Shown here: piece by piece, positions 7,441-63,000 of the stretch
Layout: each line of letters begins with the position of its first letter
Numbering within the stretch: the first letter of the stretch is position 1
NCBI RefSeq assembly: GCF_004010195.1
Contig: NC_057719.1
Location: 33,379,520 to 33,443,519, forward strand
DNA from: Chiloscyllium plagiosum
Taxonomy: Eukaryota
Direction of reading: 5' to 3'
DNA: 64,000 bases
Position numbers and translations under genes: made by a program
The notes under the pieces: generated by a model
The model's database searches: none
Told to the model about the DNA's origin: nothing
Seen by the model: only the letters and a program-made list of their open reading frames with translations

Positions 7441-8189
7441 GCGGAACTGCCACTCTGTGACATTTGGGTGGAGAAAAGCTGAGATCCACATCTCTTCAGC
7501 ACATGCTTACAGAACTGACATTTGGGTGGTACACTTGATGTCTTGGGTAATCCTCCCTTCCCTTCACAGCCCTCACTCTGCTTCTCTGACCTCTCCAGAC
7601 CAGGAGGATACATGGTTGAAGCTTTCCCTCATTATTCTGTCCAATGTCAGAGTCTCCTGTTATTATCTCAACACCTTCAACCACTGGTTTATTTGGAACT
7701 TCTCTCTCAACTGATGTCCAGCTGATGCCAGCAGGCTCACATCTCTCTCAAGAAGCCAACTACTCACTCTTCATGTATGCAAACCTCTCAGTACCAGTGA
7801 TGGCAATGCTGTGCCACTGGTTCAGCATCTGAGTATATCCTTCCTGTTCACATAACTGTACTCATGGATCCCTGCTTTCTCCCCAAAAGCTACACTCTAA
7901 TGCATCCCTGAGTCACTAGTTCCCCATACTTCTTGGTGATATAGTGAAGACAGCAGTTCCCCAGACTGTTACAAATGTTCTGCAATTAGGTCAACAATTT
8001 CTTAACTGGAGCTATTCAGAATGTAATTGCAGCCCCTCTTATCCTGCCATTAAAAGTCACATCGTGTTCCAGTAGAATCTATAACTAGTGATGCATCTGA
8101 TTTTGAGATTTCCAATATGCATCCACATCACCTCATCCTCATGGGCTTTTGAAAATCCAGAATCTGTTGACAGCATTAAATATCACACT

Positions 8190-8408
8190 GTTGAAACTTT
8201 ATTGCTGGAACAGCACAGCAGGTCAGGCAGCATCCAGGGAACAGGAGATTCGACGTTTCGGGCACAGGCCCTTCTTCAGGAATCTGAAGAAGGGCCTGTG
8301 CCCGAAACGTCGAATCTCCTGTTCCCTGGATGCTGCCTGACCTGCTGTGCTGTTCCAGCAATAAAGTTTCAACTTTGATCTCCAGCATCTGCAGACCTTA
8401 CTTTCTCC
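8190..8408. mobile_element. Palindromic mini-element made of Penelope terminal repeats, with hammerhead motifs
   Basis: 90-bp inverted arms (8190-8279 and 8284-8373) with a GAAT loop, a ~35-bp tail on the right arm, and TSD TTAAATATCACACT at 8176-8189 and 8409-8422. Confidence 0.9.
8248..8283 (-). ncRNA. Minimal type I hammerhead ribozyme motif
   Basis: The minus strand reads ATTC CTGAAGA A GGGC CTGT GCCC GAAA CGTC GAAT: stem I, conserved core, stem II, loopless stem III and GUC cleavage triplet. Activity is not shown. Confidence 0.75.
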
Positions 8409-9721
8409 TTAAATATCACACTCCCAATTGGCATTTAACTGTTATTATGTTGAGTAGATGTCACTAATACATTCAATATCATGCTCTCCACTATGACAAT
8501 TTGGAATCCAATTTTACTCGTGTTCGGCACAACCTCATTTCTCATCAATTATAGGTGTGCGAATAGTGCCTGCGGACTAGATAAGGGCTGGAATCTTGTG
8601 GAGGTAGAAAGCAGGCAAGAGCCCTCTCTTGACGGAAGGCATGCTGCATCTTATTCCACACAGGCACTTGACTGACCAGCAACAAGCACCCAGAGTCAAA
8701 AGTCACTTCCATTGTGGAAGTCAGGGGATAAAAGCTCAATTAAACAGCAGCACCACCAAGGAATCTCCCTAAAGTTGTTTTCTTACATCTCTGTCTACTC
8801 CTTTAAGATCATCTTTAAAAGCATTACCTTTGACCACGTTTTTGGCCATCTGCCTTAAAACCACCTTATGCAATGACAAATTTGGTCCGATAACATTACT
8901 GTCAAGTGCCTCGAGGCATTTTATTAAGATGGAAGCGCCATATAAATAAGTCATTGATTTTGTTGCATCTTGATGCATTGAATAAAATCATAACACTATT
9001 TTTATCTTATCTACAGGGATCAAAAAACAATATTAAAGGAGAAGCAGAAGATTACACTGACACTGGTAAAAGTTGGCAGATTTGTCAGCAGACCACAGTG
9101 TAACTTTATCTAATAGACATGTCCTCCTTTATTCTTACAACTAAACAGTCAGACTCATTTCTGCACAACATGACTCCACATCACATTGCAATTCATGTGC
9201 CCTGTACACACAAGTACCATCAAAAGGATGAAAACTGTATAAAAAGCAAGCTGATCTCAGATTATTTCTTCCAAGATCATGTTATATTCGATTCTATAAT
9301 CAGCTACAAAATGACACAATAATAATCTCAGTTTCTCTTCACACCTGTTAACAAGAATATTCAATAATATTTCACAATCAGTCAATGCTGCACCTAATAA
9401 GAGTTCTTGGACAAAAACTGCATTATGCTCTTCACAGATCAGCTTCATACAAAAGTTCCAGAAGTTCTCAGGGAGATTGGTTAGTTTTCTTTGACACAAA
9501 GTCAATTGGAAATTCAGTCTATAGACTACAGCTGTTACCCAAAAGAGAAGAGAAACTAGATCAGAGGTTAAGGGTAAAATAGACTACCAGCAAACAAATA
9601 TTTTCGACTTCAGAGGTTTATTTGGAATAAATTGAAATGGGTGCCTTTTTAATTATTTCAAAATCATTGTCCCATTCAGCAGTTGTTAATCTAATAGAGT
9701 AAACATTAAATAAATATATAA

Positions 9722-9945
9722 TAAAAACTGAAAGAACTGCAGATGTTGTAAATCAGAAACAAAAGCAAAAGTTGCTGGAAAGGTTCATCAGGTCTGGCAG
9801 CATCTGTGAAGAGAAATCAAAGTTAGCGTTCCAGTAACCCTGGAACAGTTCTGAAGAAGGGTCACTGCACCCAGAACGTTAACTTTGATTTCTCTTCACA
9901 GATGCTGCCAGACTGGTGAACTTTTCCAGCAACTTCTGCTTTTGC
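9722..9945. mobile_element. Older palindromic Penelope-terminus mini-element (second subfamily)
   Basis: Inverted arms AAGTTGCTGGAAAG..AGAGAAATCAAAGTT and AACTTTGATTTCTCT..CTTTTCCAGCAACTT. Degenerate core AGTT CTGAAGA AGGGT..ACCC AGAACGTT AACT at ~9847-9884. Confidence 0.75.
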
Positions 9946-10337: not shown

Positions 10338-10340
10338 GAC

Positions 10341-10371
<31 letters not shown>

Positions 10372-10452
10372 CAGAGAGAGAGAGGCACAGAAAGAGAGAG
10401 AGAGAGAGAGACAGACAGAGAGCGACAGACAGAGAGAGAAAGAAAGAGAGAA

Positions 10453-10483
<31 letters not shown>

Positions 10484-11846: not shown

Positions 11847-12345
11847 GCCAGCGACCAATGGACTGAAATGGGGACACCAGCGACCAACGGACTGAAATGG
11901 GGACACCAGTGACCAATGAACTGAAATGGGGACACCAGTGACCAATGGACTGAAATGGGGACACCAGCGACCAGCGGACTGAAATGGGGACACCAGCGAC
12001 TAATGGACTGAAATGGGGACACCAGCGACCAATGGACTGAAAGGGGGACACCAACGACTAATGGACTGAAATGGGGACACCAGCAACCAACGGACTGAAA
12101 TGGGGACACAAGCGACCAGCGGACTGAAATGGGGACACCAGCGACCAATGGACTGAAATGGGGACACAAGCGACCAGCGGACTGAAATGGGGACACCAGT
12201 GACCAATGAACTGAAATGGGGACACCAGTGACCAATGGACTGAAATGGGGACGCCAGCGACCAGCGGACTGAAATGGGGACACCAGCGACCAATGGACTG
12301 AAATGGGGACACCAGCGACCAATGGACTGAAATGGGGACACCAAT
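11847..12345 (+). repeat. 29-bp minisatellite, about 17 copies
   Basis: Unit GCGACCAATGGACTGAAATGGGGACACCA, head-to-tail with point variants and no spacers. Confidence 0.97.
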
Positions 12346-15479: not shown

Positions 15480-18400
15480 ACAAACTTGTATGCAATTGTA
15501 CAAAAGATGAAAGAACAAAATAGGAAAGTGAATGGCATTTTGGCCATTATTGCAAAGGTAATGGAGTACAAGAACAAGGAAATCTTGCTTCAACTGTACA
15601 GGGTTTTGTTGAGTTGAGATCTGGAGTACTTGGAGCAGTTTCAGTCTACATATCTAAGGGAGAATAAAGCTGCCTTGGAGACGGCAGAGTCAAGTTTCAC
15701 TCAATTAATTCCTTAGCTGAGGGAATTATCTGCTATTAGCCTGAATACATTGTGTCTGAACACACTGGAATTTAAAAAAAATAAGAAGTGACCCTATTGA
15801 ACCATGTACGATTATGAAGAAGTTTGACAGAGTAGACACAGAGGTTGTTTCAATAGAACATAGAACATTACAGCGTAGTACAGGCCCTTTGGCCCTCAAT
15901 GTTGGCTGACCTGTGAAACCAATCAGAAGCCTATTTATCCTACACTATTCCATTTTCATCTACATGATTATCCAATGACCGTTTAAATGCCCTTAAAGTT
16001 GGTGAGTCTACTACTGTTGCAGGCAGTGCATTCCACGCCCCGACTACTCTGAGTAAAGAAACTACCTCTGACATCTGTCCTATACCTGTCACTCCTCAAT
16101 TTAAAGCTATGACCCCCCCCCGCCCCCCACCCCAACTAGCCATCACCATCTGAGAAAAAAAGGCTCTCACTGTCCAAACTATCTAACCCTCTGATTATCT
16201 TATACGTCTCAATTAAGTCACCTCTCAACATTCTTCACTCTAACAAAAACAGCCTCAAGTCCCTTAGCCTTCCCTCATAAGACCTTCCCGCCATACAGGC
16301 AACATCCACATCCTTCCTATAATGTGGTGACCAGAACTGTACACAATACTCCAAGTGCAGCCACACCAGAGTTTTGTACAGCTGCAACATGACTTTGTGG
16401 CTCCAAAACTCAATCCCTCTACCAATAAAAGCTAACACATTGTATGGCCTTCAACCCTTTCAACCTGGGTGGCAATTTTCAAGAATCTATGTATATGGAC
16501 ACCAAGATCTCTCTGCTCATCCACATTGCCCATAATCTTACCATTAGCCCAGTACTCTTTAATACTGTTACTCATTCCAAAGTGTATCACCTTATACTTT
16601 TCCACATTAAACTCAATTTGCCGCCTCTCAGCCCAGCTCTGCAGCTTATCTATGTCTCGCTGTAACCTGCAACATCCTTTGGTATTATCCACAACCCCAT
16701 CAACCATTGTGTCATCCGCAAATTTATTGACCCATTCTTCTACGCCCTCACCCAGGTCATTTATAAAAATGACAATCAGCAGTGGATCAAAACAGATCCT
16801 TGTGAAACATCACTAGTAACTGAACTCCAGGATGAACATTTCCCATCAACCACCACCCTGTCTTCTTTCAGCTAGCCAATTTCTGATCCAAACCGCTAAA
16901 TCACACTCAATCTCATGCCTCTGTATTTTGTGCAATAACCTACCATGGGGAACCTTATCAAACACCTTACTAAAATCCATATACACCACATCAACCGTGT
17001 TACCCTTATCGACCTGTTTGATCACCATCTCAAATAAGGTTTGTGAGGCATGACCTACCCATCACAAAACTGCGTTGACTATCCCTAATCAACTTATTCC
17101 TTTCTAGATGATTGTAAATCCTGTCTCTTATAATATTTTCTAACACTTCATCCATAACTGAAGTAAAGCTCACTGGTCTATAATTACTAGGATTGTCTCT
17201 ACTACCATTTGTGAACAGGGGACAACATTTGATTTCCTCCAGTCGTCTGGCAATATTCCTGTAGACAATGACGACATGAAGATTAAAGTCAAAGGCTCTG
17301 CAATCTCCTCTCTGGCATTCCAGAGAATCCCAGGATAAATCCTATCCAGCCAAAGGGATTTATCTATTTTCACATTTTCTAGAATTGCTAACACCACCTC
17401 CTTGTGAACCTCAATCCCATTATTTAGTCTAGTAGCCGATATCTCAGCATTTTCCTTTGCAACATTGTCTTTTTCCACTGTGAACACTGATGTAAAATAT
17501 TCACTTAGCACTTTTCCAATCTCCTCGGACTCCACACACAACTTCACACTGCTGTCCTTGATTGGCCTAATCTTAGTCTAGTCATTCTTTTATTCCTGAT
17601 ATACCTATAGAAAGCTTTAGGGTTTTCCTTGATCCTACCTCCCAACGTCTACTCATGTCTCCTCCTGGCTCTTCTTAGCTCTCTCTTTCAGTCTTTCCTG
17701 GCTAACTTGCAACTCTCATGTGCCCTAACTGAGCTTTCACATCTCATCCTAAGCCACCTTCTTCCTCTTGACAAGGGATTCAACTTTCTCAGTAAACCAT
17801 GGCTCCCTCACTCCACCACTTCCTCCCTGCCTGACAGGTGCGTACTTATCAAGGACATGCAGTAGCTAGTCCTTGAATAAGCTCCACATTTCAATTGTGC
17901 CCCTCTGCTGCAGTTTCCTTCCCCATCCTATACATTCTAAATCTTGCCTAATTGCATCATAATTGCCTTTCTCCCAGCTATAACTCTTGCCCTGCGATAT
18001 ATTGCTATCCCTTTCCATTGATAAATTGAACATAACCAAATTGTGGTCACTATCACCAAAGTGCTCACCTACCTCCTAATATAACACCTGGCTGGGTTCA
18101 TTACCCAGTACCAAATTGAATACGGCCTTGCCCCTTTTTGGCCTGTCTACATACTGTGTCAGGAAACCCTCCTGCCTACATTGGGCAAACCTGACCCATC
18201 TAAAGTACTTGAACTATAGTATTTCCAGTCAATATTTGGAAAGTTAAAATCCCCCATAAAAACTACCCTGTTACTCTCGCTTCTATCCAGAATCATCTTT
18301 GCTATCCTTTCCCCTACATCTCTAGAACTATTCAGAGGCCTATAGAAAACTCTCAAAAGGGTGACCTCTCCTTTCCTGTTTCTAACCTCAGCTCATACGA

Positions 18401-19120
18401 CCTCAGTAGATGTGTCCTCAGATGTCCTTTCTACCACCTGTCCTTGACTAACAATCCTACACCTTCCTCTCTTACCAACTTCTTTGTTCTTACTGAAATA
18501 TCTAAATCCCTGCTCTATCTATGTCTCTGAAATGGCCACAACATTGAGGTCCCAGGTACCAACCCATGCTGCAAGTCCACCCGCCTTATTCCAGATTCTC
18601 CTGGTGTTGAAGTAGACACACTTCAAACCACCTTCCTGCTTGCTGGTGCACTCTTGCAACCTTGAAACCATATTTCTGACCTCACTACACTCAACCTCCT
18701 GAATACTGGAACTACAATTTAGGTCCCTATCCCCCATTGAATTGGTTTAAATCCTCCCAAAGAGTATTAGCAAATTCCACCCCCACCCTCCAGGATATTG
18801 GTACCCTTCTGGTTCCCTTGTTGGACAATCGACAGCAAGGATGCACAGTCTTAGGACAAGGGTTTGGTCATTTTAGACTAAACCAAAGAGAAATACCTTC
18901 ACTCTGAGGGTTGTGAATCTTTGAAATTTATAACCCCAGATGGTTGTGAATATTCCATCATTTAATTTATACAAGATAGATAGAAATTTGTTCTTTCAGG
19001 GGATGGAGAGGGTATGGGAGAGTGGAGTCGAGGTAAATAAGTTTCTATGATTATATTGAATGGCAGAACAGTCTCAAAGGGTTATACGTCTATCCCTGCT
19101 CCAATTTATGTTCTCATATT
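15480..19120 (+). mobile_element. Older CR1 3' fragment (15480-15852 and ~18816-19120) split by a younger antisense CR1
   Basis: CR1-like coding sequence (ILLQLYRVLLS..LEY) stops at GAGGTTGTTTC and resumes after ~18816 with GGGTTGTGAATCTTTG and a 3' UTR. Confidence 0.65.
15853..18815 (-). mobile_element. CR1 LINE, near-complete ORF2 (APE endonuclease + RT), pseudogenised
   Basis: LKCVYFNTRRI, YRPLNS, MGDFNFPNIDW, VYMDFSKVFDKVPHGRL and LEYCVQFWSPHYRKD; (TTCTATG)n tail at 15853. Confidence 0.92.
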
Positions 19121-21939
19121 TGAAAAACATCTATTGAAAATTTATTTAAAGAAATGTGGCTGAAAGAAATTAAGTAAACATATGGATTTTCGAAGCATGG
19201 AAGTGGTCCACAAAAGAATTGTTAAAAATAAATTCAGACATATGTTTTGAGAGAAAATTTAGCTCATGGATAAAACCTGATTTGACAGGTCAGAAGCAAA
19301 GTTAAGTTAAATAATACATTTTAAATGTTCACACCACTGAATGGTCAAGTAATGTCACTCAGGTTTCAAAGCTGAGTCCAGCTTGGCTCATCATTGGATG
19401 CTTTGCACTTCAATAAGGAGGACACAATCTCAAAATGTGCTAAATACACAAAAGTAGGCAAACAGCCAAAAAACCTCAGCAAAGCGTGGACAACCTAATG
19501 GCTATAACGAAATGGGAATAAGTGTGAATAGGAAAACATGAAATTATATTTTCCATTCAATGACAAATAGCTGAATGGTGTAGAGCTGGTAAGACCTGAA
19601 ACTTGTCATTTCAGCTCAGAGATAGGGCTGCTAGATTCCTTATATATTTCAATACTATTCATTCATTCATTCACCAAACATGTCTGCTTAGTTACCTCTG
19701 TCTCCTAGACATTTAGCATCCTGTTATAAGAATTCAGTACTGACATGGATGAACAAAAGGAATAATATTGTCCATTGTATAATTAAAATATTACAGTGGA
19801 GAAGTTCTGATACATTTGTACAAGACATTACTCATGATTCGAATAGTGTGAATCCCAACTTTGGCTATTTTTGGAAAAACATTACAATTATACAGGGTGG
19901 CTGATTCATTAGAACAATGCCAGAGACAAGAACGTATAATTCTGAAAAGAGATTCCAGATATTAGGTCAATTTACACTGGAGTAGAAAAGTGTGAGGAAT
20001 TTAGTTTTGGCACAGATTTGCAGTGGAGAATGATAGCAAAGCTGCTAGCACTTATTGTTATGACACCACTAAAAACGAACAACAGGGAATCCGTACATGA
20101 ATAGAATAATTTAGAAATTTAGAAAATGCTATCAATGATTCTGCATTTCTAAAGTTATTGATGTCCCCATCCCCTGTGCTCAATCAATGGGAAATCTTTG
20201 AATAGACATAAATGCACACTTTTAGACTACTTGTACACCTTGAATGGAATAAGGTGAAATTGGGTATTTATTGGCAAACTAACTTCATAATTATCCTTAT
20301 TGAAACACAGATTTGGAACAAATAACTACTTTTTAAAAATCTATTGAAGCTCTTCGCTGTAAGGTGACTGCTCTACCTAAACTATGCCTACTGCTCCAGA
20401 TAAACTGGTAGGAGGTTTGGTGCTAGACCTGCCCTCAACAAATAAGGAAGTCCACTCTTGAGAAACAAATTTACATGAAATGAAAATGTCAAAATTCGCC
20501 ATTATGAAGAATAATATTGTAAAAATTTTAAAAGTCATGTATTAAAGAACATTTGGTTATTTACCATCCATCTTAATCCAATCAAAATCCTTTATTTTAT
20601 CATCCGAAAATTTATGAATGAAGGATAAAGTTTTGGGGAATTCATGAAGAGGACTCATTAGTTTACCATGAGTATGCAGAGGTGTTCATGAAATTGTCTT
20701 CATACAGAGAAGGCAAATCAAGAACATGTGAAATGATGCAAGTAACCTTCTCCTGCATTCTTCTATTTATTGTTTCAACAGAGGAAGTAAATGTTTCATT
20801 TTACTTGCGTTAGCAAATTTATTAAGATAAGCAATGCTATATGAATCTTATAAAGACACATATTAGAGCATAATTTTTCAAGTCACTTTATTAGCCATCT
20901 ACTTCACCATTGGAACTATCATTCCTTGAATAATCATTGAATGCTAAACCGCAAGCAATTAAATATCAGTAACATTTCACAGCACAATGCAACCCCAACT
21001 TTCAACAAGCTACCACGAAGACAAGCATTTTGCTTTAAAATTGTTGCTTGACTTAAGTTACTCATGCTACTTCAAATAAACTGATAAAATAGGCACAGTG
21101 TGGCTGCAATATGGTCAAGGCATCCATGTTCAAAACAGCAGGCCTGGCAATGTTCCAACCAGGTGACTGTACTCAAAATGTTTTCAGGTTATATACTTTT
21201 AATTAATAAATTGTTAAAAAGTGAAAGAAACAAGGGTCCAATTCTACCACGAATCACATACTGAGGGACAATAAGGGACGTGCAATATGTGCTGCCCCAG
21301 CCAATGATACACACGTCCAATGAGTGAATTAAAAGAAACTGAATTCAAAGCTGATTTGGAAATATATTACACGTCCCTTGCTTTTCTAATGAAGCTGGTG
21401 TTTAGCTATTTTCTTGAACTTCTGCAGTCCAAACACTATGGAATCAGAATTTCTGATCATTTCCAACATTCTCTCTTTATTTGCAGCTTCTACAGTCTTT
21501 TTACTTTGGTTTCTAAGTATTTTCAATCTTCCTCACAGAATGAAAATCCAGTCAAATCCAAACTAGTTGTCCAAATACAATCAAGCTCCTAGCTCGAATA
21601 CAAAGAATGACCTAATTTCAAACCACAGGTGTATACTCTGTTGCAAAGTTAAGTACTATCTTCTGAGTAACACATCTCTTCATGTCTCAGGAGTATCTCT
21701 GTACAGCATCACATGCACCAGCATGAGACAGAGCAGTCGATTAGTCAGTAACACTGTCAATCGACTTATGGTTTTCTCTTGCATTTCTTTACTTTCTCAG
21801 TACAATTTCTGACCTTTCCTGATCAAAGCTACTTCACTAGAATTGTCACAAATGTGTAAAGCAATTGTAAACTTCTGCAAATTTGAATCTGTGTTTGATC
21901 TAGTGCCTGAGAAGTGACAATGTGACATAGATTACTTAC

Positions 21940-22869: not shown

Positions 22870-23435
22870 AATAATATTATGTTGCATTCTTATTGAAATT
22901 GATTTTCAAGCACTTTGAGATTTTTGACTTGGACATTCTGAACATTCTTATTTAGTTCTTTCTAAGCAAAGTCAACAGTTTCCAGTTTTTAACAGTATTT
23001 TGTGAACTCTTCCCCTGTCTGGCTTCCTCCTGCTTTGAATATCTGGATCTGTTCCTTTATACCACACATCTCAGTCTCTTTATTCCCTAAATTATACTGG
23101 ATTTCTGATACTTACAAATCATTGAGTGTTAATTGAAGATCTATGGAGTTTGCTTCAGCCCTCATTCAAGTGTCCTAGTTTTTGTGATTGACACTGAATT
23201 GTTCTCATTAATTCTGATTTTTCATGAGCAAACTTATTTATGTTGACAAAGGTTGCTTCTCTGCATTGATCAATTCGTCCTTCAGTGGCTCATTATTAGC
23301 AATAAGCTTTTTGTGTTTGGCCACAGTAAATTTGAGGAGCTTCACAAACTCAACATAATCACGCAACCGCTTGATGTTATTCTCTGAACCAGCAACTTTA
23401 AAGACTAGAGCTGCTTCTGTTTTCTTCAGAAAAGT
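22870..23435 (-). repeat. Left arm of a ~565-bp inverted duplication
   Basis: Reverse complement of 24587-25151; an identical peptide is encoded on opposite strands (FLKKTEAALVFK...KQPLST). Confidence 0.93.
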
Positions 23436-23443: not shown

Positions 23444-23539
23444 ATTCCTGAAGAAGGGCCTGTGCCCGAAACGTCGAATCTCCTGTTCCCTGGATGCTGC
23501 CTGACCTGCTGTGCTGTTCCAGCAATAAAGTTTCAACTT
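23444..23539 (+). mobile_element. Solo Penelope-terminus mini-element with an intact hammerhead motif (23444-23479)
   Basis: ATTC CTGAAGA A GGGC CTGT GCCC GAAA CGTC GAAT followed by the same body as 8284-8373. Confidence 0.88.
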
Positions 23540-24586
23540 GGGAAAGTGCAACCAAGTTGTCCTCTGCCAAAGCAGAAGTAGTGTCTCTTGCTGCTGTTAG
23601 TACACAGCAGGCAATTAGGAAGAGTCTCATAAAATGATAATTCCATGGATGCAAAAAATGGTTAGGCTTAATAGAAGTCTTGAAAGCCATTGATAGCTCA
23701 CTATAGTTGGGAGTGGGGTTAAGAAAGCACACAAGTAACATTTGCCTAATGCACTGCTGGAGGGCTGATGCCAAGATAAATTCAGTAGCAACTTCATGAA
23801 ATGAGCTATTTTATAAAAGTTGGAATTGTTCCAATAATTAGATGCTTAGGAGCAATCTCAGAACTGTTGAGGAACTCAGTTTCAGGAGAACAACCGGCAC
23901 ATGAACAACTATTGAGGCAATCCAAATCAAAGAGACTTTGTGTGTATTCCAAACTTAGACCATTAAGAGCGTTAATTTGGAATTCCTCACCAAGGAAATA
24001 GATTTTAATTAGCTTTAGTGACGCAATATCTTTAAAGTCTGTGTGGAATCTATCTTGACCAGATCGACTACTTGTAATAGAGCTGGCAAAGTATTTGACC
24101 ATATTTATTATGTTAATACATATTTACTTCCTATTAATACTGATTGCTTGTAAGGTGTGTACATAACGCATATAGTTAAGAGTTATTATCTCAAATATTC
24201 AGTATATTTATTTATTCAATATTGTTTATGTTTGATTTATTCAAATTTGTATACTATAGTGCAAATTGTTTTGTATTTCAACTTAACTGTGGAAACCTGC
24301 CACTTATTTCCTTACCCTAGGTTCTTCCACACATTCAGTTCTTTAAAATATAATGGTCTATCCAGCCTAATCATAAAGATCTGGCTTGTCCAGTATTTTC
24401 ATAACTGGGATCATAAAGTATGTTATAGCAAGATCGAAAAAAAATCTAAGATTACAGAATGCTGAGACCAAGTAGCATCTTCAAACATTTCAAAAAAGAT
24501 GATTCAGTGGAACTCAATGGAATTAAACAAATAGGATTTCATGGTAAAATGTATGGTATTTGTTGAAAATGACTGTCCTTGCTACA

Positions 24587-25151
24587 ACTTTTCTGAAGAA
24601 AACAGAAGCAGCTCTAGTCTTTAAAGTTGCTGGTTCAGAGAATAACATCAAGCGGTTGCGTGATTATGTTGAGTTTGTGAAGCTCCTCAAATTTACTGTG
24701 GCCAAACACAAAAAGCTTATTGCTAATAATGAGCCACTGAAGGACGAATTGATCAATGCAGAGAAGCAACCTTTGTCAACATAAATAAGTTTGCTCATGA
24801 AAAATCAGAATTAATGAGAACAATTCAGTGTCAATCACAAAAACTAGGACACTTGAATGAGGGCTGAAGCAAACTCCATAGATCTTCAATTAACACTCAA
24901 TGATTTGTAAGTATCAGAAATCCAGTATAATTTAGGGAATAAAGAGACTGAGATGTGTGGTATAAAGGAACAGATCCAGATATTCAAAGCAGGAGGAAGC
25001 CAGACAGGGGAAGAGTTCACAAAATACTGTTAAAAACTGGAAACTGTTGACTTTGCTTAGAAAGAACTAAATAAGAATGTTCAGAATGTCCAAGTCAAAA
25101 ATCTCAAAGTGCTTGAAAATCAATTTCAATAAGAATGCAACATAATATTAT
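24587..25151 (+). repeat. Right arm of a ~565-bp inverted duplication
   Basis: Reverse complement of 22870-23435. Confidence 0.93.
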
Positions 25152-25329: not shown

Positions 25330-26120
25330 ATCTTGAATGAAGTAGGCAAGGTAGAGAGTGGAAAGGTGTAGGGAGGTAATGCCAGGCCTAGTGTTGGAGC
25401 AATGATAGCTAGAAATGCACAAGGGACTGGGATGAGAAGAGCTGGGTATCTCAGGGGTTTGAGCTGAAAATGTGTTGCTAGAAAAGCACAGCAGGTCAGG
25501 CAGCATCCAGGGAACAGGAGAATCGACGTTTCGGGCATAAGCCCTTCGGGGTTTGCAATGCTTGAGGAGATTAGAATGATAGTAAGGCATGAGGCTATGG
25601 AGGGAGTTGAATACAAATTTAGAAAATTAAAGTGAACATGTTGCTTGCCTAGGAGTCAATGTCAGTCAGGAAGTACGAGAAGAGTGGTGAAAGGAACTTG
25701 CTATAATAGAGTTTTGGATAACCTTAGGTTTAAAGGCAGTGGAATGTGGGGGACGAGCCATGAGTGCACCAGAAGACATGATGTTAATGACAATGAATGA
25801 ATGAGGATTTCAGTGGCTGATCAACTGAAACAGGGTCAATGTTGACTAACGTTGTAAAAGTGAAAATAGGCACTGTTAGTGAAGACCGAAATATGAGCTT
25901 GGAAGCTCCTCTCAGGATCAGATCTGATGCCAAGGTTTTGAACAGACTGGCTTAATTCAAGATTTTTGTCAGAGAAAGGGATGGAGTTAGTAGCTAGGGA
26001 ACAGAGTTTGAAAATGGGGACCAAAAACAAGGGTTTCAATCTTCTAATAGTAACTCAGGGGAAATCTCAGCTCATCCAGTACTCGATGTTGAATAAGCAG
26101 AAAGGTAATTTACAAAAAAA
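25330..26120 (-). mobile_element. Highly decayed L2-type LINE fragment
   Basis: Minus-strand peptide LSQSVQNLGIRSDPERSFQAHISVFTNSAYFH resembles the L2 ORF2 C-terminal region. Confidence 0.55.
25462..25547 (-). mobile_element. Penelope-terminus mini-element, truncated within the hammerhead core
   Basis: GAAAAGCACAGCAGGTCAGGCAGCATCC..GACGTTTCGGGCATAAGCCCTTC; flanking repeat GGGGTTTG at 25454-25461 and 25548-25555. Confidence 0.8.
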
Positions 26121-27463
26121 CAGTAAAGCAAAAAAGACTATGGACTCAACTGATCAGTACAATGCCAGGAAATGTATTTAAGAATGTAAATGTGTTTTCT
26201 CAAACAGGGTGTTCAAATATTTACAATATACAGTGATGACTCAAAGTGGACTTACTTCATTCCCAAAATACTGCATTCAGCCCTGAGGACTTGGTGCAAA
26301 ATGCTACTGGACCAATTATGGAGTCAGCACATACTGACATTTTGAATTAGTTCTAATCGGATGATGGTTCATAGTAGTTGATGTTTTTCCAATAATCTGA
26401 TTCATAATATTTTAAGATTTAAAACAATGGTAAGGAATTCATCCACCCAAAACTGGTATTATTTTAATATGTACTTAAGAACAGAGTGAGAACAGCTTTG
26501 ATAAATTTAAAAAATAGATTTGAACATTGTGCAATCATCAACAAACATGGTCACTTTTAACCATAAGATGGAGGGAAGGGTTATTAATAAAACAGCTGAA
26601 GATCCAGGACGCTACTCTGGGGAACTCCTGTTCACTGTCTTAGAGTTGAGATGTCCAACAACTACAATCACCTGCCTGTATGTTAAATATGACTCTGACC
26701 ATTGGAATGTTTTACCCATATTTCCATGCTCTCCAATTTTGGTTGGGGTCCTTGATGCCATAGTTAGTTAAATGCAGCGTTGACATCAAGACAGACACTC
26801 TCACCTCACCTCTTCTGTCCATATTTGCACGAATGCTGTAAAAACATCTGAAGCTGAGTGGCCCTTGTGGAACCCAAATATGTGTATGCAGGCTGCTAGC
26901 TGCTAGAACTGTTGAAACTGCCTTCCATCACTTGGTTGGTGATTGGGAGTAGACTGATGAGGCAACAATTGATAGAATTGGATTTTCTCTTTTTTCATTG
27001 ACAGCATGTACCTTGGCAATTTTCCACAAGGTTGGAGAGACATCAGTTTTTTTAGTTACACTGGAAAGCTACACTTGGCTAGGGCTGCAACTTATTCTAG
27101 AGCACAAATCCTCAGTACAAATCCAGTGTTTTCAACCATTTCTTGATATCATATAGAGTGAAACAAAGTAATTGAAGGCTGGCATCTGTGGAAGACCTCA
27201 GAAGGCTGCTCAGATAGATCATCCATGTGGCACTACTGGTTGAAGGCGATACAAGTGCAACGGCCTTGCCTTTTTGCACCAATGTGTCAGGCTCCCTCAT
27301 CTTGGAGGTTGAGAATATTTGTGGAGTTCTACCTTCCTGTCCATTGTTTAGTTGCTCCACCTAGATTTCACACCACCTCAAAACTCAGATTTGAACTGCT
27401 AGTTGTGGGAGAACCCTGTTGATTTTGGCTGTCTTCATACATGGGGTGGGGTGGGAGGTGGGG

Positions 27464-34271: not shown

Positions 34272-35926
34272 TGGTGTAGATTTGCTCACTGAGCTGTAGG
34301 TTTGATATCTAGACGTTTCATTATCTGGCTAGGTAACATCATCAGTGGGGACCTCCAAGTGAAGCGAAGCTGTTGTCTCCTGCCTTCTATTTATATGTTT
34401 GTCCTGGATGGGGTACCTGGGGTTTGTGGTGATGTCATTTCCTGTTCGTTTTCTGAGGGGTTGATAGATGGGATCTAGACCTATGTGTTTGTTTATGGCG
34501 TTGTGGTTGGAGTGCCAGGCCTCTAGGAATTCTCTGGCATGTCTTTGCTTAGCCTGTCCCAGGATAGATGTGTTGGCCCAGTCGGAATGGTGGGTTTTTT
34601 CCTCTGTGTGTACGCCTATGAGGGAGAGAGGATTGTGTCTTTTTGTGGCTAGCTGGTTTTTGTGTATCCTGGTGGCTAACTTTCTTCCTGTTTGTCCAAG
34701 TAGTGTTTGTGGCAGTCCTTGCATGGAATTTTGTAGACGACGTTGGTTTTTGGCCATGGGTTGTACTGGGTCTTTTAAGTTTGTTAGTTTTTGTTTGAGA
34801 GAGTTGGTGGGTTTGTGTGCTACTGGGATTCCGAGGGGTCTTAGTAGTCTGGCTGTCATTTCTGAGACTTCTTTGATGGATGGTAAGGTGGTTAGGGTTT
34901 CTGGCTGTGTTAGGTCTGCTTGTCGTGGTTTGTTCCTGAGGAATCTGCGGACTGTATTTTTTGAGTATCTGTTCTTCTTGAATACGTTGTATAGGTGGTA
35001 TGTGCTGCAATGTGTGGTGGCTCATTGGAATAGTATCCTGATACAGCTTCGTTTGTGTGTGTTGGGATGGTTGCTGGTGTAGTTAAGTATTTGGTCAGTG
35101 TTTGTCGGTTTTCTGTATACGCAGGTTTGTAGTTCTCAGATGTCCTTTCTTTCGACTGTGATGTCCAGGAATGCGAGTTTGTTGTCGGTTTCTTCCTTCT
35201 TGGTGAACTTTATGCCTGTGAGGGTTTCATTTTGTGATGACAAAGGTGTCATCTATGTAGCGGACCCAGATTTTTGATTTGATGGTTGGTAGGGCTGTTT
35301 GTTCTAGTCTTTGCATTACCACTTCTGCTATGAATCCTGATAGCGGAGATCCCATGGGACAAACAGGAAGAAAGTTAGTCACCAGGATACAACCCATGGA
35401 CAAAACCAACGTCATCCACAAAATTCCATGCAAGGACTGCCACAAACACTATGTAGGACAAACAGGAAGAAAGTTAGCCACCAGGATACACGAACACCAA
35501 CTAGCCACAAAAAGACACAACCCTCTCTCCCTCGTAGCCCTACACACGGATGAAAAAAAACACCATTTTGACTGGGCCAACACATCTATCCTGGGACAGA
35601 TTAAGCAAAGACATGCCAGAGAATTCCTAGAGGCCTGGCACTCCAACCACAACGCCATAAAAAAACACATAGATCTATCTACCATCTATCAACCCCTCAG
35701 AAAACAAACAGGAAATGACATCCCCACAAACCCCAGGAACCGCATCCAGGACAAACATATAAATAGAAAGCAGGAGACAACAGCTTCGCTTCACTTGGAG
35801 GTCGCCACTGATGATGTTACCGAGCCAGGTACTGAAACGTCTGGATATCAAACCTACAGCTCAGCGAGCAAGCCTACACCCTAAACCTCAACCTGAGCTA
35901 CAAACCTTCACAAACCTTGTAAAAAA
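34272..35926. mobile_element. Penelope-like retroelement with inverted structure: RT C-terminus + GIY-YIG on the minus strand (34272-35358) and an inverted GIY-YIG/terminal-repeat copy on the plus strand (~35390-35926)
   Basis: PMGSPLSGFIAEVVMQRLE..WVRYIDDTFVI (RT) and NVIHKIPCKDCHKHYVGQTGRKLATRIHEH (GIY-YIG). 13-bp TSD GATGTAAAATATG at 34259-34271 and 35927-35939. Confidence 0.93.
35805..35844 (+). ncRNA. Hammerhead ribozyme motif in the Penelope terminal repeat (mirror copy at ~34309-34348 on the minus strand)
   Basis: CCA CTGATGA TGTTACC GAGCCA GGTACT GAAA CGTC TGG. Confidence 0.7.
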
Positions 35927-37068
35927 GATGTAAAATATGCCAATACTCAACAGGGTTCATTGAAGGGCACACGATTGTTCTAATTTCTTGGCCAATATTT
36001 CTCCCTTAATCAACGATACCAAAACAGGTCAAAAGATAACTATTTGTGATTATAATCTTGTTGTTGCCTTCCAAGTACAGTTTTCTGTAAATACAATGCT
36101 ACTCTCCAGAGTTAAAGGAATTTTGTACAGAAACAGTAAGATTAGTTTATAAGAATCATGTTAGTTATGCCTATGAAATTGCTGCGGGGAAGAAGGACAA
36201 TTAATGATCAGCTGCTATTACTGAGTCTATCCCATTCTGGCACAGTGGATCTTCTGCACATAATCATCCCATTCGTACCCTATGCTGCTAAAATGGCAAA
36301 TGACATTCGAGGGAATGCATAAACATCACTAAAGAATATATCCAGCTGTGCTAAACATTTGCTGGATGATTTTATGAGACAGAAAACCTACAAAAGATAT
36401 AAAATGTTAAATTATATTGACTGCCACGCTTAATCATTCAAGGACAGCAACTACTGAACAATATACTTATCTTATGAAATGATCTGCTAAATTGAAAGAA
36501 GCTAAATTATCATTGTAATTCAATCTCATACATATAATAAAACTGATCTACAACAAACATTTCTCTGAGTAGCAGAATGAACTACTTATTTCCTTCAACT
36601 GCCTTATCACAAAATAGCATTTTAGAGATTGCTTTAAAGTTTAAAAAAAACAAACAGCCAAAAATGATGCTAAATCAAAAGATAGTGTACTGTATGTTGA
36701 AAATCTGAAATTAAAAACAGAATTATTGGAAATACTCTGCAGATAGCAGATCAGGAGAGAGGGAAATGAGAAGGCTGCAGAAATTTCAATGGTGGTTTTT
36801 GCAAGGCTGCAACTGCACACAGGACCAGGCGAAAACCCCAAAGCAGCTGATTCAACGTGAGCTATTCTGCAAATACAAATTTCCTTTGGCTGATTACTCC
36901 ACATCTGGAATTCTCTGAAAAAGTCCCTTGTCATTGTAGGATTTTGGAGGGCTCTAACTCATTTGAGTTAAATGTGCAAACAGGAAAGTTACAAGATTAA
37001 AAACCTATTCTAACTCTTGGGCAACTATTAAAGAGAACCACTGACTCACCATAACCTGTACAAAACTA

Positions 37069-37659: not shown

Positions 37660-37788
37660 TATTCTTGATGAAGGGCTTATGCCTGAAATATCAATTTTCC
37701 TGCTACCTGGATGCTGCCTGACCTGCTGTGCTTTCTAGCACCACACTCTCGACTCTGATCTCTAGCATCTGCAGTCCTCACTTTCTCC
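37660..37788 (+). mobile_element. Solo Penelope-terminus mini-element with tail and degenerate hammerhead
   Basis: TTGATGAAGGGCTTATGCCTGAAATATC..GGATGCTGCCTGACCTGCTGTGC..CATCTGCAGTCCTCACTTTCTCC. Confidence 0.82.
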
Positions 37789-38801
37789 CCTATTCATGTA
37801 TTGCAAGAAGTCAGCACAGTTATGGAAGTCAAGTCTCTCCAGCATTTAGGAAAATGCATGTTTGAAAGTAATGCTCCCTTTATATTCTTAAACAAGACAC
37901 TGCTATTCTCTAAATTGGGGTACTATTTCCCTCCAGGAGGGATTTTTAAGAAATATAAGAGAACATGCAGTCAGCAAGTTTCCAATCATTGAAGAGGAAT
38001 GTTTCCAAGAAATTAGTAAATTTTTGTTTGTCCTCCTGCTTACAAGATGACTGCTAGCCACCTGAAAATTTGCTGACTTTTCTCTATCCCTCTGACACAG
38101 TGGCTGACAGCTTGAAACAATTAGAGATAAATTCAACCCTTGAAACCCCTCTCAAGAAGCCAAGTGATCACTCATCGTCAACACTGCTTGGAGCATCACA
38201 GACATTTATCTCAGGGCTGTGATGTCCAGTGGAGGTAAAGACAGTACAGGGCTCACTAAAGGTGGTACCACTCAGCTCTATAATAATATCCAGAGTATAA
38301 CCACACTGGTATTTGCTGCCTGGCAAGTATAGAGGCTTTAAGTGCAGCTCCGTCTTTATTTATTTGGAGACTCTCAGTGACTTGAAGATTTACTTGGAAA
38401 TCATTAAGAAGGATCTGCTCTTGTACACCGAGCACACTGAATACAAGACCAATGCCATCATAATCTGTACCCTCAAATGCCATGGAAAATATTTCTATGA
38501 ATTCAGTGGTTGGAAACTCTGAAGGAAATATCTCAACACTGCCCTGGTATACTCAGTACCTGCTTGGATTGGTAATTCACTTTCCAGTCACAGAGAGCTA
38601 TCCTCATTTATATTCCATCTGCGAGCATCTTGTTGGCCTCTTTTGCCTCTTAAGGAAAAGGATCACTAGTAAGTTATGACACAGTTCATAAGTTTGAATT
38701 CTCAACAGTACAATATCAAACCTTGCAAGTAGTGAAATGAATGGGACAACTCTCAATAAATTGTATGAATGCACTGTCACTACCCTCCTTGATGTGGAGT
38801 T

Positions 38802-43871: not shown

Positions 43872-44191
43872 TAGATTAGATTACTTACAGTGTGGAAACA
43901 GGCCCTTCGGCCCAACAAGTCCACACCGACCCTCCGAAGAGCAACCCATCCAGACCCATTCCCCTGCATTTACCTCTTCATCTAGCACTACGGGCAATTT
44001 AGCATGGCCAATTCACCTAAGCTGCACATTTTTTCAGGCTGTGGGAGGAAACCAGAGCACCCGGGGGAAACCCACACAGACATGGGGAGAATGTGCAAAC
44101 TCCACACAGACAGTCGTCTGAGGCGGGAATTGAACCCAGGTCTCTGGCGCTGTGAGGCACCAGTGCTAACCACTGTGCCACCGTGCCGCCC
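43872..44191 (-). mobile_element. tRNA-derived SINE (HE1/V-SINE type) nested in CR1
   Basis: Full head (reverse complement of GGGCGGCACGGTGGCACAGTGGTTAGCAC) and AGATT tail. Confidence 0.92.
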
Positions 44192-44479
44192 AAAGAGGGG
44201 CATAGGTAGCGTAAATAGACCAGGTATTTTCCCGGAGGTGGGTGAGTCCAGAACTAGAATGCATAGGTTGGGGGGGGTTTAGGGTGGAGATATGATAGAG
44301 ACCTAAGGGGCAACCTTTTCACGCAGAGGGTGGTGTGTGTGTGGAATGGGCTGGAGGCTAGTACAATTGCAACATTTAAAAAGGCATCTGGATGGGTATA
44401 TAAATAGGAAGGGTTGGAGAGATATGGGCCGGGTGCTGGCAGGTGGGACTACATTGGATGGGATAGAGTCATGGATGAG

Positions 44480-44592
44480 GAAGGGCTTATGCCCCCACAT
44501 TCCTGAAGAAGGGCTTATGCCCGAAACGTTGATTCTCCTGCTCCTTGGATGCTGCCTGACCTGCTACGCTTTTCCAGCAACACATTTTCAGC
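44480..44592 (+). mobile_element. Penelope-terminus mini-element with hammerhead motif, inserted in the CR1 3' end
   Basis: 16-bp TSD TAGAGTCATGGATGAG at 44464-44479 and 44593-44608; core ATTC CTGAAGA A GGGC TTAT GCCC GAAA CGTT. Confidence 0.88.
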
Positions 44593-46423: not shown

Positions 46424-46558
46424 TGACAAAGGGTCAGTTAGACTCAAAATGTCAGCTCTTTTCTCTCCTTACAGGTGCTGTCAGACTTGCTGAGATTTTC
46501 CAACATTTTCTCTTTTTTGGTTTCAGATTCCAGCATCTGCAGTAATTTGCTTTTATCT
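46424..46558 (+). mobile_element. Older solo Penelope-terminus mini-element inside a decayed CR1 (~45900-47070)
   Basis: TTGACAAAGGGTCAGTTAGACTCAAAATGTC degenerate core and CAGCATCTGCAG tail; flanking AGTGGATRAATT at 46412-46423 and 46559-46570. Confidence 0.7.
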
Positions 46559-46846: not shown

Positions 46847-47019
46847 AGGCGAAAGTGAGGACTGCAGATGCTGGATATTAGAGTCAAGATTAGAGTGGTG
46901 CTGGAAAAGTGCAGCAGGTCAGGCAGCATCCGAGGAGCAGGAAAATCGACTTTTCGGGCAGGAGCTCCTCGGATGCTGCCTGACCTGCTATGCTTTTCCA
47001 GCACCACTCTCATCTTGAC
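46847..47019. mobile_element. Palindromic Penelope-terminus mini-element
   Basis: Inverted arms GTCAAGAT..GGCAGCATCCGAGGAGC and GCTCCTCGGATGCTGCC..ATCTTGAC; flanks AGGGATAGAAAT and AGGGATGGAGAT. Confidence 0.8.
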
Positions 47020-59082: not shown

Positions 59083-59959
59083 AAGGAAAGTGGAGAAGCA
59101 TTGCTGGTTAAGGAGGAAATTAACACAATAGTAAGGAAGGACATTAGCCTGGACGTTGTGGAAACAATATGGGTGGAGGTGCGGAACACAAAATGGAAAA
59201 AGACATCAGTGGGACTTGTGTACAGACCACCAAGCAGTAATTGTGATGTTAGGATTGTTTCAACAGGAAATTAGAGATCTATGCAGTAAGACTACAGCAG
59301 TTATTGTGGGTGACTTCAATCTACATATTGATTATACTAACCAAACTGGTAGCAATGCAATGGAGGAGGACTTTCTGGAATAGATGAGGGATGGTTTCCT
59401 CAACCAATACATCAGGGAACCAACTACTGAGCAAGCCATCCTAAGCTGGGTATTGTGTAATGAGAGAGAATTAATCAGCAACATGGTGGTAGAATTCTTC
59501 ATTCAGATGGAGAGTAATATAATTAAATCTGAAACTAGGGGCCTGAACTTAAAGAAATCTAACTTTGATGGTATGAGGCACGTATTGGCTAGGATAAACT
59601 GGCCAAGGATACTTAAGGGGTTGACGATGGATAGGCAATGGCAGACATTTAAAGAACACATGGATGAATTTCAACAATTGTATATCCCTGTCAGGCTTAA
59701 GAGTAAAACAGGGAAGGTGGCTTAACTATGGTTAACAAAGGAAATCAGGGATAGAGATAAAGCCGAATTGGCCAGAAAGTGCAGCAAATCTGAGGACCAG
59801 GAGAACAAAGCAGAGGAAGACAAAGGGTTTAATTTGGAAGGGATAAATGAAATATGAAGGTAAGGTTATGGAAAACATAAAAGCTGACTGCAAAAGCTTC
59901 TATACATATGTCAAGAGATAAAGACTAGTGAAAACAAATGTAGGTCCCGTGCAGTTTGA

Positions 59960-60087
59960 GGAGAAAGTGAGGTCTGCAGACGCTGGAGATCAAAGTTGAA
60001 ACTTTATTGCTGGAACAGCACAGCAGGTCAGGCAGCATCTAGGGAACAGGAGATTCGACGTTTCGGGCACATGCCCTTCTTCAGGAA
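59960..60087 (-). mobile_element. Solo Penelope-terminus mini-element with tail and intact hammerhead motif (60053-60088), inserted in CR1
   Basis: 15-bp TSD TCCCGTGCAGTTTGA at 59945-59959 and 60088-60102; the minus strand reads ATTC CTGAAGA A GGGC ATGT GCCC GAAA CGTC GAAT. Confidence 0.9.
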
Positions 60088-63000
60088 TCCCGTGCAGTTT
60101 GAATCAGGTGAGTTCATAATGGACAACAAAGAGATGGCAGACCAGTTAAACAAATACTTTAGAGCTGATTTCACTGAGGAAGACATAAAAAACCCTCAGG
60201 AAATGCTCAGGGGACATCAGGTCAAGCATGAAGGAAGAACTGAAGGGAATCCTTATTAATAAGGAAATGGTATTGGGGAGATTGATGGGATTAAAACCTG
60301 GTAAGTCCTCAGAGCCTGTTGCTCTGAAAGAAGTGGCCCTAGAAATAGCAGACATATCGGTGATCATTTTCTAGCATGCTGTAGACTCTGGAAGAGTTCC
60401 AATGGCTAGGAGGGTAGCTCGTGTAACCCCATGCCTTAAGAAAGGTGGGAGAGGGAAAATGGGGAATTATTGGCTGGTTAGCCTGACATCGGCAATGGGG
60501 AAAAATCAAGGATGCAATAGCTGAGCATTTGCAAAGCAATGACAGAATCGATCCGAGTCAGCATGGATTCACGAAAGAGAGATCATGCTTGACAAATCTT
60601 CTGGAATTTTTTGAAGATGTGACCAGTACAGCAGACAATGTTGAATCAGTAGATATTGTATATCTGGACTTTCAAAAGGCTTTTGACAAAATTCCACACA
60701 AAAGATTAGTAAGGACAATTAAAGCTCATGGAATTGGAGGTAAAGCATTGACATGGATAGAGAACTGGTTGGCAGACCGGAAGCAGAGAGTTGGAATAAA
60801 CGGGTCCTTTTCAGAGTGGCAGGCAGTGGTGAGAGGGGTGTCGCGGGGTTCAGTGCTGGGAGCCAAACTGTTTACAATGTACTTTAACGATTTGGATGAA
60901 GGAATTGAATGCTATATCACCAAATTTACAGATAACACTAAGCTGGGTATGTGTGCCGTGAGGAAGATGCTAAAAGGATGACTTGGACAGACTGGCTGAG
61001 TGGGCAAATACTTGGCAAATGCAATATAATGTGGATAAGTGTGAAGTTATTCACTTAGGTCATAAAAACAGGAAGGCAGATTATTATCTGAATGGTGACA
61101 GTCGAGGAAAAGGTGAGGTGCAATGAGACCTGGGTGTCATGGTGGAACAGTCACTGAAGGATGGCATGCAGGTGCAGCAGGCAGTGAGGAAAGTTAATGT
61201 CATGCTGGCTTTCATAGTGAGAGAATGTGAGTATCAGAGTAAGGATATCTTACTGCAGTTATACAGGACTTTGGTGAAGCCACAACTTTAGAATTGAGTG
61301 TAGTTTTGGTCTCCTAGTCTGAGGAAGGACATTCTTACTGTTAAGGGAGTTCAGTGAAAGTTCACCAGACTGATTCCTGGCACTGACACATAAGGAAAGA
61401 CTGAATCAACTGAACTTGTACTTGCTGGAATTTAGAAAAACGAGGGGGGAAATCGCATAGAAACATATAAAATCCGAATCGGACTGGATAGGCTGGATGC
61501 AGGAATAATTTTTTCTGATGTTGGGGAAGTCCAGAATTAAGGGTCACAGTCTAAGAATAAGGGGTAAGCCATTCAGGACTGCGATGAGGAAGAATTTCTT
61601 CACTCAAAGAGTTGTGAACCTGTTTAAATTCTTTCCCACAGGATGCTGTTGGGGCCAGTTCATTAGATATATTCAAGAGGGAGCTGAATGTGGCCTTTGT
61701 GGCTAAAGGAATCAAGAGATATGGGGAGAAAATGGGAGTGGGATGCTGAGATTGCATGATCAACCATGACCATACTGGATTGTGGTGCAGAATCCATGGG
61801 CCTATGTCTGCATCTCTTTTCTATGTTTTTATGTTAATATGCAAATGTTAAGGCCAATTCCTCCTCACCACAGGAGTGCACCATTTTGTTAGCTGTCTGA
61901 TAACACAAAACAAGGCTGAGGGAGGCAATGGGCTAGAAAAAGGACCAAGGTAAATGGAGAATCATCTGTTTTTAAACACCCTCTGACTAGGAGCTGCAAA
62001 ACCAAATCCTCCCCAAGACAACTAACCCCCACTGCCCCACAAGGTAACTTCCAAACTTTAAATCATCAATTACATCTATTTATTCCTTCACACCAACTCC
62101 AATTGATTCCAACCTCAGTCCTCCCCTCCCCCAATCTTGATTTCTTCTACATCCCTGAGCCCCAAATTTGCCTTTAACTTCTCATGCCTCTACCCTCCCA
62201 ATCATGGCCATGATTGCTCATGTCACCCCTGCTATGGATTACTGGGAATTATTCCCACAAGTTCCTGGCTACAATCCCCTGGTACTAATACTGCTCCCCC
62301 CCCCCACCCCACCCCATCACAAAGACACTCCATTATCACAGTGTCATGCAGGAGTCTGTACTGGTTTATCCAAATAAACTCTGGCTCCTGCAGGGCTTTT
62401 TTTGCCCACTAATGGGATTAACCCAATACTTCCACCTGAGGGCCACAATTCTGAGCCATCGCACAACATTTTTTCAATTGCTGGTCTTCAATGTTTCTGT
62501 TACCATGCAGAAAAATTCATTTTTCTTTCAGTACAAATTGACTCTTTTTCTATTTTCATATTGATGAAATATTTAAATATTTAAACTTGCCTGTCTCATT
62601 ATTTCAATGCCCACAAAGGAACTATACACCACATCATTCTGCGTGATTTTATCATTAGAACTCATTATCCTGTTGTAATCCAATATCTCCAGACTCTCAA
62701 AAGTGTGGCTGACCACTCCTCCTTCAGTCTTCCCATTTCCAGCTTCTCAAGACCCAAGAATGGAAGTACCCAGATGCTCTACCCAGCTTTATTATTTTAC
62801 GAGCATTTTTTTTTCAATCTTGGTGATTTACTATGCGATGGATCCTATTTTTATATGTGGTATTTCAGTATAAAAATAAACAAACAAACAAACTTGACAC
62901 TTTGGTCAAAATATAAATATTTTGAGCTAAATCAATACCTTATACTCATAAAGAGAAACTGCTGTTGCAACAACATTCCAATTCACCACAGGTCTAGTAT

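Follow-up and report, generated by a model that had tools for sequence, protein, structure and literature searches.

Nine short, non-coding inserts in a 64-kb stretch of the Chiloscyllium plagiosum genome (NC_057719.1; the window below is this whole stretch) are best read as ultra-short insertions of Neptune-type Penelope-like elements (PLEs), and not as one family of short interspersed elements (SINEs) or retrozymes. They are probably end fragments made by the PLE machinery. The element class, its hammerheads and its inverted, tailed insertions have been published already; the unordinary part is the 5' boundary, as half of the arms end at the front of stem I of the hammerhead-like motif. Comparisons with published systems refer to excerpts of the sources cited.

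A sequence-only reading of the window had placed the inserts at 8190, 9722, 23444, 25462, 37660, 44480, 46424, 46847 and 59960, the names used here. All nine were found there (86-223 bp; 1299 bp in total, or 2.0% of the window), as was a longer relative proposed at 851 (Table 1). Blastn searches with one unit or with a PLE end recovered every insert, the weakest being 9722 (E 2.6e-6) and 46424 (E 3.8e-5). A profile search of the window returned 15 arms at E<=3.5e-17 and nothing further below E 0.6; the profile was built from the same 15 arms, so that their own matches are circular and the search is informative only on the absence of others. A subfamily profile added two weak, decayed matches, at 36694-36769 (E 0.004) and 21445-21505 (E 0.008), compared with a best E of 0.06 in eight local shuffles.

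The body of the inserts had been likened to the 3' terminus of a PLE, and the likeness holds: stubs of subfamily A (the 8190 type) are 69-75% identical to the end of the broken element at 1951-3565, in which a decayed hammerhead lies at 3434-3460. A tblastn search with protein P0001 covers 2099-3317 (E 4e-67); P0001 has matches to RVT_1 and GIY-YIG, both under the Pfam cut-offs, and the closest protein match bears the species name Chiloscyllium punctatum. A CX2-5CxxC linker upstream of GIY-YIG is the Neptune criterion and is common to Nematis (PMC8557442); by its linker, CHHNRCETC in frame 2552-2872, the element has a predicted Neptune/Nematis layout and is called Neptune-type here. In a 14-row tree, which left out arm 46964 (too short) and the arms of a Poseidon-type PLE, the long copy at 3435 groups with the subfamily A stubs (support 85/95), and 0% of bootstrap trees unite the short copies. 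No coding frame was tied to the 851 arm by tblastn at E<0.01. As for the earlier view that the inserts form one family, they do have a common PLE end module, but the grouping is loose, with arms of the 8190 type and the 9722/46424 type 54-64% identical. Near the 5' end of the 1951-3565 element, its reverse transcriptase (RT) coding sequence contains three tandem 57-bp copies (2007-2179), possibly the result of slippage or template jumps.

The 5' ends were counted from the first C of the hammerhead core, which places the cleavage site at +28. Five arms end at -4 (8283 on the minus strand, 9847, 23444, 44499 and 59960) and three more at about -2 (37660, between -4 and 0), 0 (8284) and +1 (46424). 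Eight of 16 arm ends therefore fall within a 6-nt stretch where stem I opens, some 32 nt ahead of the cleavage site, which bears out the proposal that copies begin at stem I instead of at random truncation points. Other arms end at +5 (25462), +7 (the 9846 minus arm, in its least favourable reading), +10 and about +37 (the two arms of 46847, which consequently has no hammerhead core) and about +38 (the weak copy), and three end far upstream (the two 851 arms and the long PLE). None of the 16 ends lies at the cleavage site, and none between -10 and -190. Self-cleavage was accordingly rejected as the setter of the 5' end, because copies keep the part of the core that precedes the cut site and no end falls at +28.

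Ordinary random 5' truncation could give the appearance of a cluster if hammerhead-bearing copies were preferentially ascertained: the copies were picked by their motif, the numbers are small, the arms of one insertion are not independent, and very short old copies can escape detection (the two weak matches have no hammerhead). However, the profile search gave no further clear copies, and no end lies between -10 and -190. Geometric truncation was also simulated with a detection limit of +50, the 46847 arm that ends at about +37 being entered as +41, and the weak match 21445 (tail region only) and the Poseidon arms being excluded. When the cluster was required to lie away from the detection limit, P was <=5e-5. 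An unconstrained scan gave P 0.003 at a mean length of 40 and <=0.0003 at >=60, and counting per insertion (7/12) gave 0.003 and <=0.0002, respectively; the geometric model is thus rejected at mean lengths of at least 40 (P<=0.003). The cluster is real in the window, on small numbers, and random truncation is a highly improbable source of it.

Target-site duplications (TSDs) were scored against 1975 random boundary pairs and are present at P<=0.011 in eight of the nine short inserts, either exact or with one or two mismatches (Table 1). The lengths of 14, 8, 16 and 15 bp reported from the sequence are all exact, that of 8 bp applying to both 25462 and 23444. In the same test the TSD of insert 37660 was not significant (P 0.11), nor was one found at significance for the long element 1951-3565. 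The TSD of 23444 (8 bp plus 5 extra bases) is less secure, because one end of a perfect inverted duplication of 565 bp (22871-23435 / 24587-25151) overlaps its left copy by 5 bases. This duplication adjoins the insert, and may be an assembly artefact or an insertion-linked rearrangement. Copies of the long interspersed element (LINE) that hosts 59960 were found to skip the insert (contig joints such as 59956->60114 and 59916->60096), and the 59960 junction itself is present in a second sample (a 107-nt contig with zero mismatches). As the inserts have their own TSDs and paralogous LINE copies occur without the insert, they are separate retrotransposition events, in keeping with the independent insertion suggested earlier. 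Within the TSD of 44480, ahead of the main arm, is a second, 15-nt stem-II fragment (44480-44498) that resembles a jump to a second template.

Three of the nine inserts (8190, 9722 and 46847) are head-to-head inversions, as are 851 and the Poseidon-type PLE at 34272; neither the inversions nor this PLE, which serves as an internal comparison separate from the nine inserts, figured in the sequence-only reading. A tail of 35-45 nt is carried by exactly one arm in all five inverted insertions, the unrelated Poseidon-type PLE included. Arm 3' ends fall at two sites, +89 to +91 or +124, and inverted arms meet with overlaps of 1-2 nt. An inverted copy plus a tail on one arm is described PLE insertion anatomy (PMC3846280, PMC8557442, PMC8969392), and the features of PLE membership found here are the one-arm tail, adjacent inverted 5'-truncated copies (three of nine) and TSDs that vary from 8 to 16 bp (eight of nine).

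Insert 8190 folds into a perfect 90-bp hairpin, and the hammerhead fold is therefore removed. Its 4-nt loop, GAAT, reads as cDNA of the short arm, and the partner arm extends 35 nt further, which would exclude either arm as a fold-back copy of the other; fold-back self-priming was ruled out for this insert by the loop orientation and the tail asymmetry. Its anatomy points to two primings. Inserts 8190, 23444 and 59960 are 97-100% identical and yet are a hairpin, a tailless single arm and a tailed single arm, respectively, as expected if the form arises at insertion. Should they be transcribed, such perfect hairpins of 90 bp, scattered over the genome, would supply double-stranded RNA.

The inserts had also been said to share a hammerhead module. 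A descriptor of the minimal type I hammerhead found five sites (8279-, 23448+, 44503+, 60084- and 967-; null mean 0.17, maximum 1), but a CUGANGA+GAAA+UH core with its stems is kept in only four of the nine: 8190, 23444, 59960 and 44480, the last with GUU and a 2-bp stem I. The 5' half of the core is missing from 25462 and 46847, and the core is mutated in 37660, 46424 and 9722, partly through CpG decay; for 37665, 5/8 CpG sites are changed, compared with 19/120 other sites. An Rfam scan of the window detected no hammerhead family at E<=10, its seven matches, all under the gathering scores, being mostly microRNA models on the palindromes. That PLEs carry minimal hammerheads in their terminal repeats is published (PMC4209133), as the sequence-only reading had it, and the motif in the window matches the published one, including the extra base after position 9 that characterizes minimal PLE hammerheads.

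In a 10-row alignment, 91% of cells pair and 3/8 pairs are changed on both sides, while slid controls pair in 10-52%; as the structure was drawn from the same sequences, the rows are related and two rows include flank or shifted stem I bases, the covariation backing for the stems appears modest. The swap of stem I to AGTT/AACT is a real compensatory change between subfamilies, and stem I occurs in four compensatory versions (ATTC/GAAT, AGTT/AACT, AATC/GATT and AGTC/GACT). These changes reflect selection that acted on the source elements and not on the copies once inserted. The stem II loop varies with pairing kept (CTGT, TTAT, ATGT), as had been observed, but this is loop change and not covariation. 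Folding revealed no unusual stability in eight of eight hammerhead segments (z -1.0 to +0.9), and co-folding two young copies did not produce an active dimer, although minimum-energy models do not probe dimer activity.

We lean towards reading the inserts as by-products that Neptune PLEs generate during target-primed reverse transcription, the 5' end being fixed where the enzyme runs off the template start. The element's own RT and GIY-YIG endonuclease would likely lay down the end module (hammerhead, body and optional tail). A staggered cut 8-16 bp apart, presumably made by this endonuclease, would generate the TSDs observed. Copying would begin inside the RNA at either of the fixed sites, about +90 or +124; internal initiation is suggested by the two 3' ends observed here and by the Anolis PLE protein, which cuts and extends both strands, has two internal RNA start sites and uses uncleaved RNA (PMC11167929). 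Priming of one nick would yield a single arm, and priming of both would yield two cDNAs joined head to head through a 1-2-nt overlap with a tail on one arm only, which is the anatomy observed. The cDNA would stop at -4 to +1 by run-off at the template 5' end; the Anolis product shortens as its template is 5'-truncated (PMC11167929). As D. virilis Penelope transcripts begin in the upstream terminal repeat (PMC2377424), the module would sit at both RNA ends, and priming on the 5' copy would give a stub of 90-130 nt, likely dead on arrival. A more specific version can be put forward only tentatively: a 'strong-stop'-like PLE product, in which the module lies at both transcript ends, run-off occurs at the hammerhead front and a protein dimer primes the two nicks in separate events.

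The stubs might instead be PLE by-products copied from the 3' module of full-length RNA, the enzyme stalling at the hammerhead fold or at the C-rich tract upstream, or the junction being resolved there by cutting or microhomology. The ends scatter from -4 to +10 and not at one base, junctions overlap by 1-2 nt, C-rich tracts lie directly upstream in the long copies, and the ATT preferred by the Anolis endonuclease (PMC11167929) is present on both strands of the young stem I. Stalling nevertheless seems unlikely: the hammerhead fold is weak by the z scores above, its stems would be opened before the enzyme reaches -4, and the ends precede copying of the C-rich tract. A variant in which the front of stem I is a splice junction has a parallel in a D. 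virilis intron that ends at helix I (PMC4209133), but no common exon-like sequence stands ahead of the stubs in the window.

Alignment to 59850-60210 of the contigs from three DNA runs (organism A, two samples; organism B, one) gave 19269 and 16956 records for organism A and 11182 for organism B. Summed depth, which is not a copy number, is in the hundreds to thousands over the LINE flanks; within the element it reaches millions. Contigs that are 99% or more alike are many in organism A (2075/19269 and 1808/16956) and few in organism B (73/11182). The runs show a family that is very abundant and has undergone a recent burst specific to this species. In all three runs loose ends are most frequent at the tail end, 59959, with long diverse flanks (164, 101 and 151 contigs; agreement 0.34-0.35). 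Among the sites listed, the top 5' loose-end site in all three runs is 60088, which is -4 (99, 96 and 63 contigs), and it is at least twice any other listed 5' site in runs X1 and X5.

At 59959 the loose-end consensus has identical final 4 bases in each of the three runs, so many copies extend a few bases further, and the extended end resembles a pyrimidine tract followed by AG. Joints such as 60089->59955 (depth 60.7) and 60089->60055 (depth 119) point to tandem or re-primed forms that occur rarely at other genomic sites. At 60054 the older base, which leaves a U-U mismatch in stem I, accounts for some 47% of the depth in the organism A data and for 97% in those of organism B; the pair is restored in the young subfamily.

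The sequence-only reading had preferred a distinct SINE-like or retrozyme-like family, which would have its own master RNA of about 130 nt and depend on PLE proteins for mobilisation in trans. Non-autonomous derivatives of PLEs are known (PMC8557442; Li et al., bioRxiv 10.64898/2026.07.22.740005). The 97-100% identity of the young subfamily and the lack of a long copy of it in the window would suit such a family, as would the very high abundance, the species-specific burst and the short-copy monophyly that was not rejected; the joint 60089->59955 reads head-to-tail, and the loose letters past -4 resemble the tail end. However, RNA polymerase III A and B boxes or an A-rich end were found in 0/7 units, while boxes were found in 2/2 tRNA-type SINE controls, by patterns that we take to represent these boxes. 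No tandem units occur in the window (0/8 tandem-repeat rows involve the module), no 5' end lies at the cleavage site and, against a circular template, tail sequence precedes none of the eight clustered arms. Near-identical copies vary in architecture, the 90-bp duplex of hairpin copies removes the hammerhead, some subfamilies are old, and the long coding copy groups among the short ones, if weakly (AU p 0.06). The same pattern recurs across subfamilies that are 54-64% alike. This alternative is therefore doubtful, and the assignment to ultra-short PLE insertions follows from the divergence of the subfamilies, the lack of polymerase III boxes, poly(A) and tandems, and the core being kept in four of nine.

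Several observations weigh against run-off at the template start. Neither a promoter nor an open reading frame (ORF) start was located for this stub family, and the 5' edge of helix I marks the end of an intron in D. virilis, not a start site (PMC4209133). A long copy of the young subfamily is absent from the window, and the approximately unbiased (AU) test does not reject short-copy monophyly (p 0.060). The -4 peak in the DNA runs is confounded, because the reference copy ends at -4 and longer copies loosen there too. The loose letters beyond -4 agree at 0.40-0.42 and have the same first 4 bases in all three runs; together with their short median lengths, this indicates a common sequence into which some of the copies run on, either 3' untranslated region (UTR) or tail in tandem. 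Finally, 7-8 of the 16 arms end outside the cluster, and for mean lengths of 15 and 25 the simulation gave P 0.24 and 0.035 in the unconstrained scan and 0.14 and 0.018 per insertion, although such short means do not fit, because they are unable to yield three copies beyond 200 nt.

Similar motifs are known from PMC4209133, in which mostly solo hammerheads, thousands per vertebrate genome, with opposed pairs 100-700 bp apart, are ascribed to truncated PLEs. Those hammerheads, like the ones here, are type I and minimal, with a 4-5-bp helix I, an extra base between 9 and 10.1 and a palindromic helix III remnant, and the core CUGAAGA is common to the window and the supplement (30 occurrences); in contrast, opposed motifs abut here. 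The supplement file searched contains no shark, and TSDs and 5' ends are not tabulated in the portion of the text examined. Endonuclease-positive (EN+) PLEs have an inverted pseudo-long terminal repeat (pLTR), a 30-40-bp tail and TSDs of 8-10 bp (Arkhipova 2013, PMC3846280; Craig 2021, PMC8557442), and their head-to-head inversion, one-arm tail, heavy 5' truncation and small junction overlap recur in the window. The window copies differ in that the end module often makes up the entire insertion and in the clustering of their 5' ends at stem I. In the Anolis Poseidon element PAc (Frangieh 2024, PMC11167929), two start sites downstream of the hammerhead define the tail, as they would here, but PAc is a Poseidon whose ORF starts inside the hammerhead, while the stubs are Neptune-type; its main text, as examined, does not report genomic 5' ends at stem I.

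Non-LTR retrozymes are likewise non-coding, with a type I hammerhead, kinship to PLE terminal repeats, larger TSDs and solo monomers (PMC7229834; bioRxiv 10.64898/2026.07.22.740005), and have been reported in one cartilaginous fish (Li et al.). They are defined by head-to-tail tandems and circular RNA, whereas the copies in the window occur singly or head to head and have minimal, often decayed motifs. SINEs, including the hammerhead-bearing Schistosoma Sm/Sj-alpha (PMC6765202), are also short, non-coding and TSD-flanked and have a 3' end in common with an autonomous partner; unlike them, the inserts have no polymerase III promoter head and no A-rich or simple-repeat tail. Penelope elements have been reported in whale shark (PMC8455134). 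No description of 5' ends clustered at the hammerhead was found in the literature covered, which did not extend to Repbase, Dfam, Arkhipova 2006 or the tables of the retrozyme preprint.

The 5' boundary bears on two open questions, namely how a PLE insertion is completed and what role the hammerhead plays (PMC8557442, PMC11167929). That a young, very abundant family has its 5' ends ahead of the cleavage site is an in vivo argument for an uncleaved RNA template, and the stubs constitute a large natural data set for run-off versus stalling. A strong-stop product, if true, would make the many thousands of shark stubs an in vivo map of transcript start, both priming sites and cut stagger, and would explain the origin of pseudo-LTRs, inverted repeats and retrozyme seeds.

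Table 1. PLE-derived features of the window; 5' ends are counted from the first C of the hammerhead core.
Feature	Position	Strand	5' end	TSD	Description
Older inverted PLE insertion	851..1616		190-350 nt upstream of hammerhead (both arms)	9 bp (842-850/1617-1625)	Arms reach into C-rich 3' UTR; tail on minus arm only; contains N gap
Broken, 5'-truncated Neptune-type PLE	1951..3565	+			RT C-terminal part, CX4CxxC linker, GIY-YIG, 3' UTR, tail
Hairpin insert, young	8190..8408		-4 (minus arm), 0 (plus arm)	14 bp, exact (8176-8189/8409-8422)	Minus arm 8190-8283, tailless; plus arm 8284-8408, tailed
Inverted insert, second subfamily	9722..9944		-4 (plus arm)	13 bp, 1 mismatch	Stem I AGTT/AACT, GAAA mutated; minus arm tailed, with deletions
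Young single arm	23444..23542	+	-4	8 bp, exact	Tailless; hammerhead intact
Single arm	25462..25547	-	+5	8 bp, exact	Core without CUGAA; tailless
Poseidon/Penelope-type PLE, inverted	34272..35926			13 bp, exact	Each arm with a hammerhead-like motif; one arm tailed
Possible old decayed copy, weak	36694..36769	-			No hammerhead
Older single arm	37661..37789	+	-4 to 0	6 bp, putative, overlapped by the 5' end	Tailed; core decayed at CpG
Single arm	44480..44592	+	-4	16 bp, exact	Tailless
Old single arm, second subfamily	46424..46558	+	+1	12 bp, 1 mismatch	Tailed; core decayed
Inverted insert (46847)	46850..47018			16 bp, 2 mismatches	Arms joined at GCTCCT microhomology; tail on minus arm
Young single arm	59960..60088	-	-4	15 bp, exact	Tailed; hammerhead intact; sits in LINE fragment

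A 19-nt pattern from the insert body matched no viral contigs. It occurred at 48 metagenome loci, which were dismissed as chance since, with the seed masked, 0/48 matched the profile. A tRNA-type SINE that has both A and B boxes, and which we presume to resemble shark HE1, is present in copies at 4382-4546, 5950-6248, 6430-6718, 7137-7434, 27463-27789, 42577-42765 and 43871-44192. A 29-bp minisatellite of 17 copies (11848-12343) is located between 300-bp direct repeats that are 99% identical (10769-11068/12944-13243), and a 274-bp tandem duplication is present at 41265-41813. Two long repeats 23.4 kb apart, at 15905-18438 and 39279-41950, are 77-85% alike and are probably LINEs.

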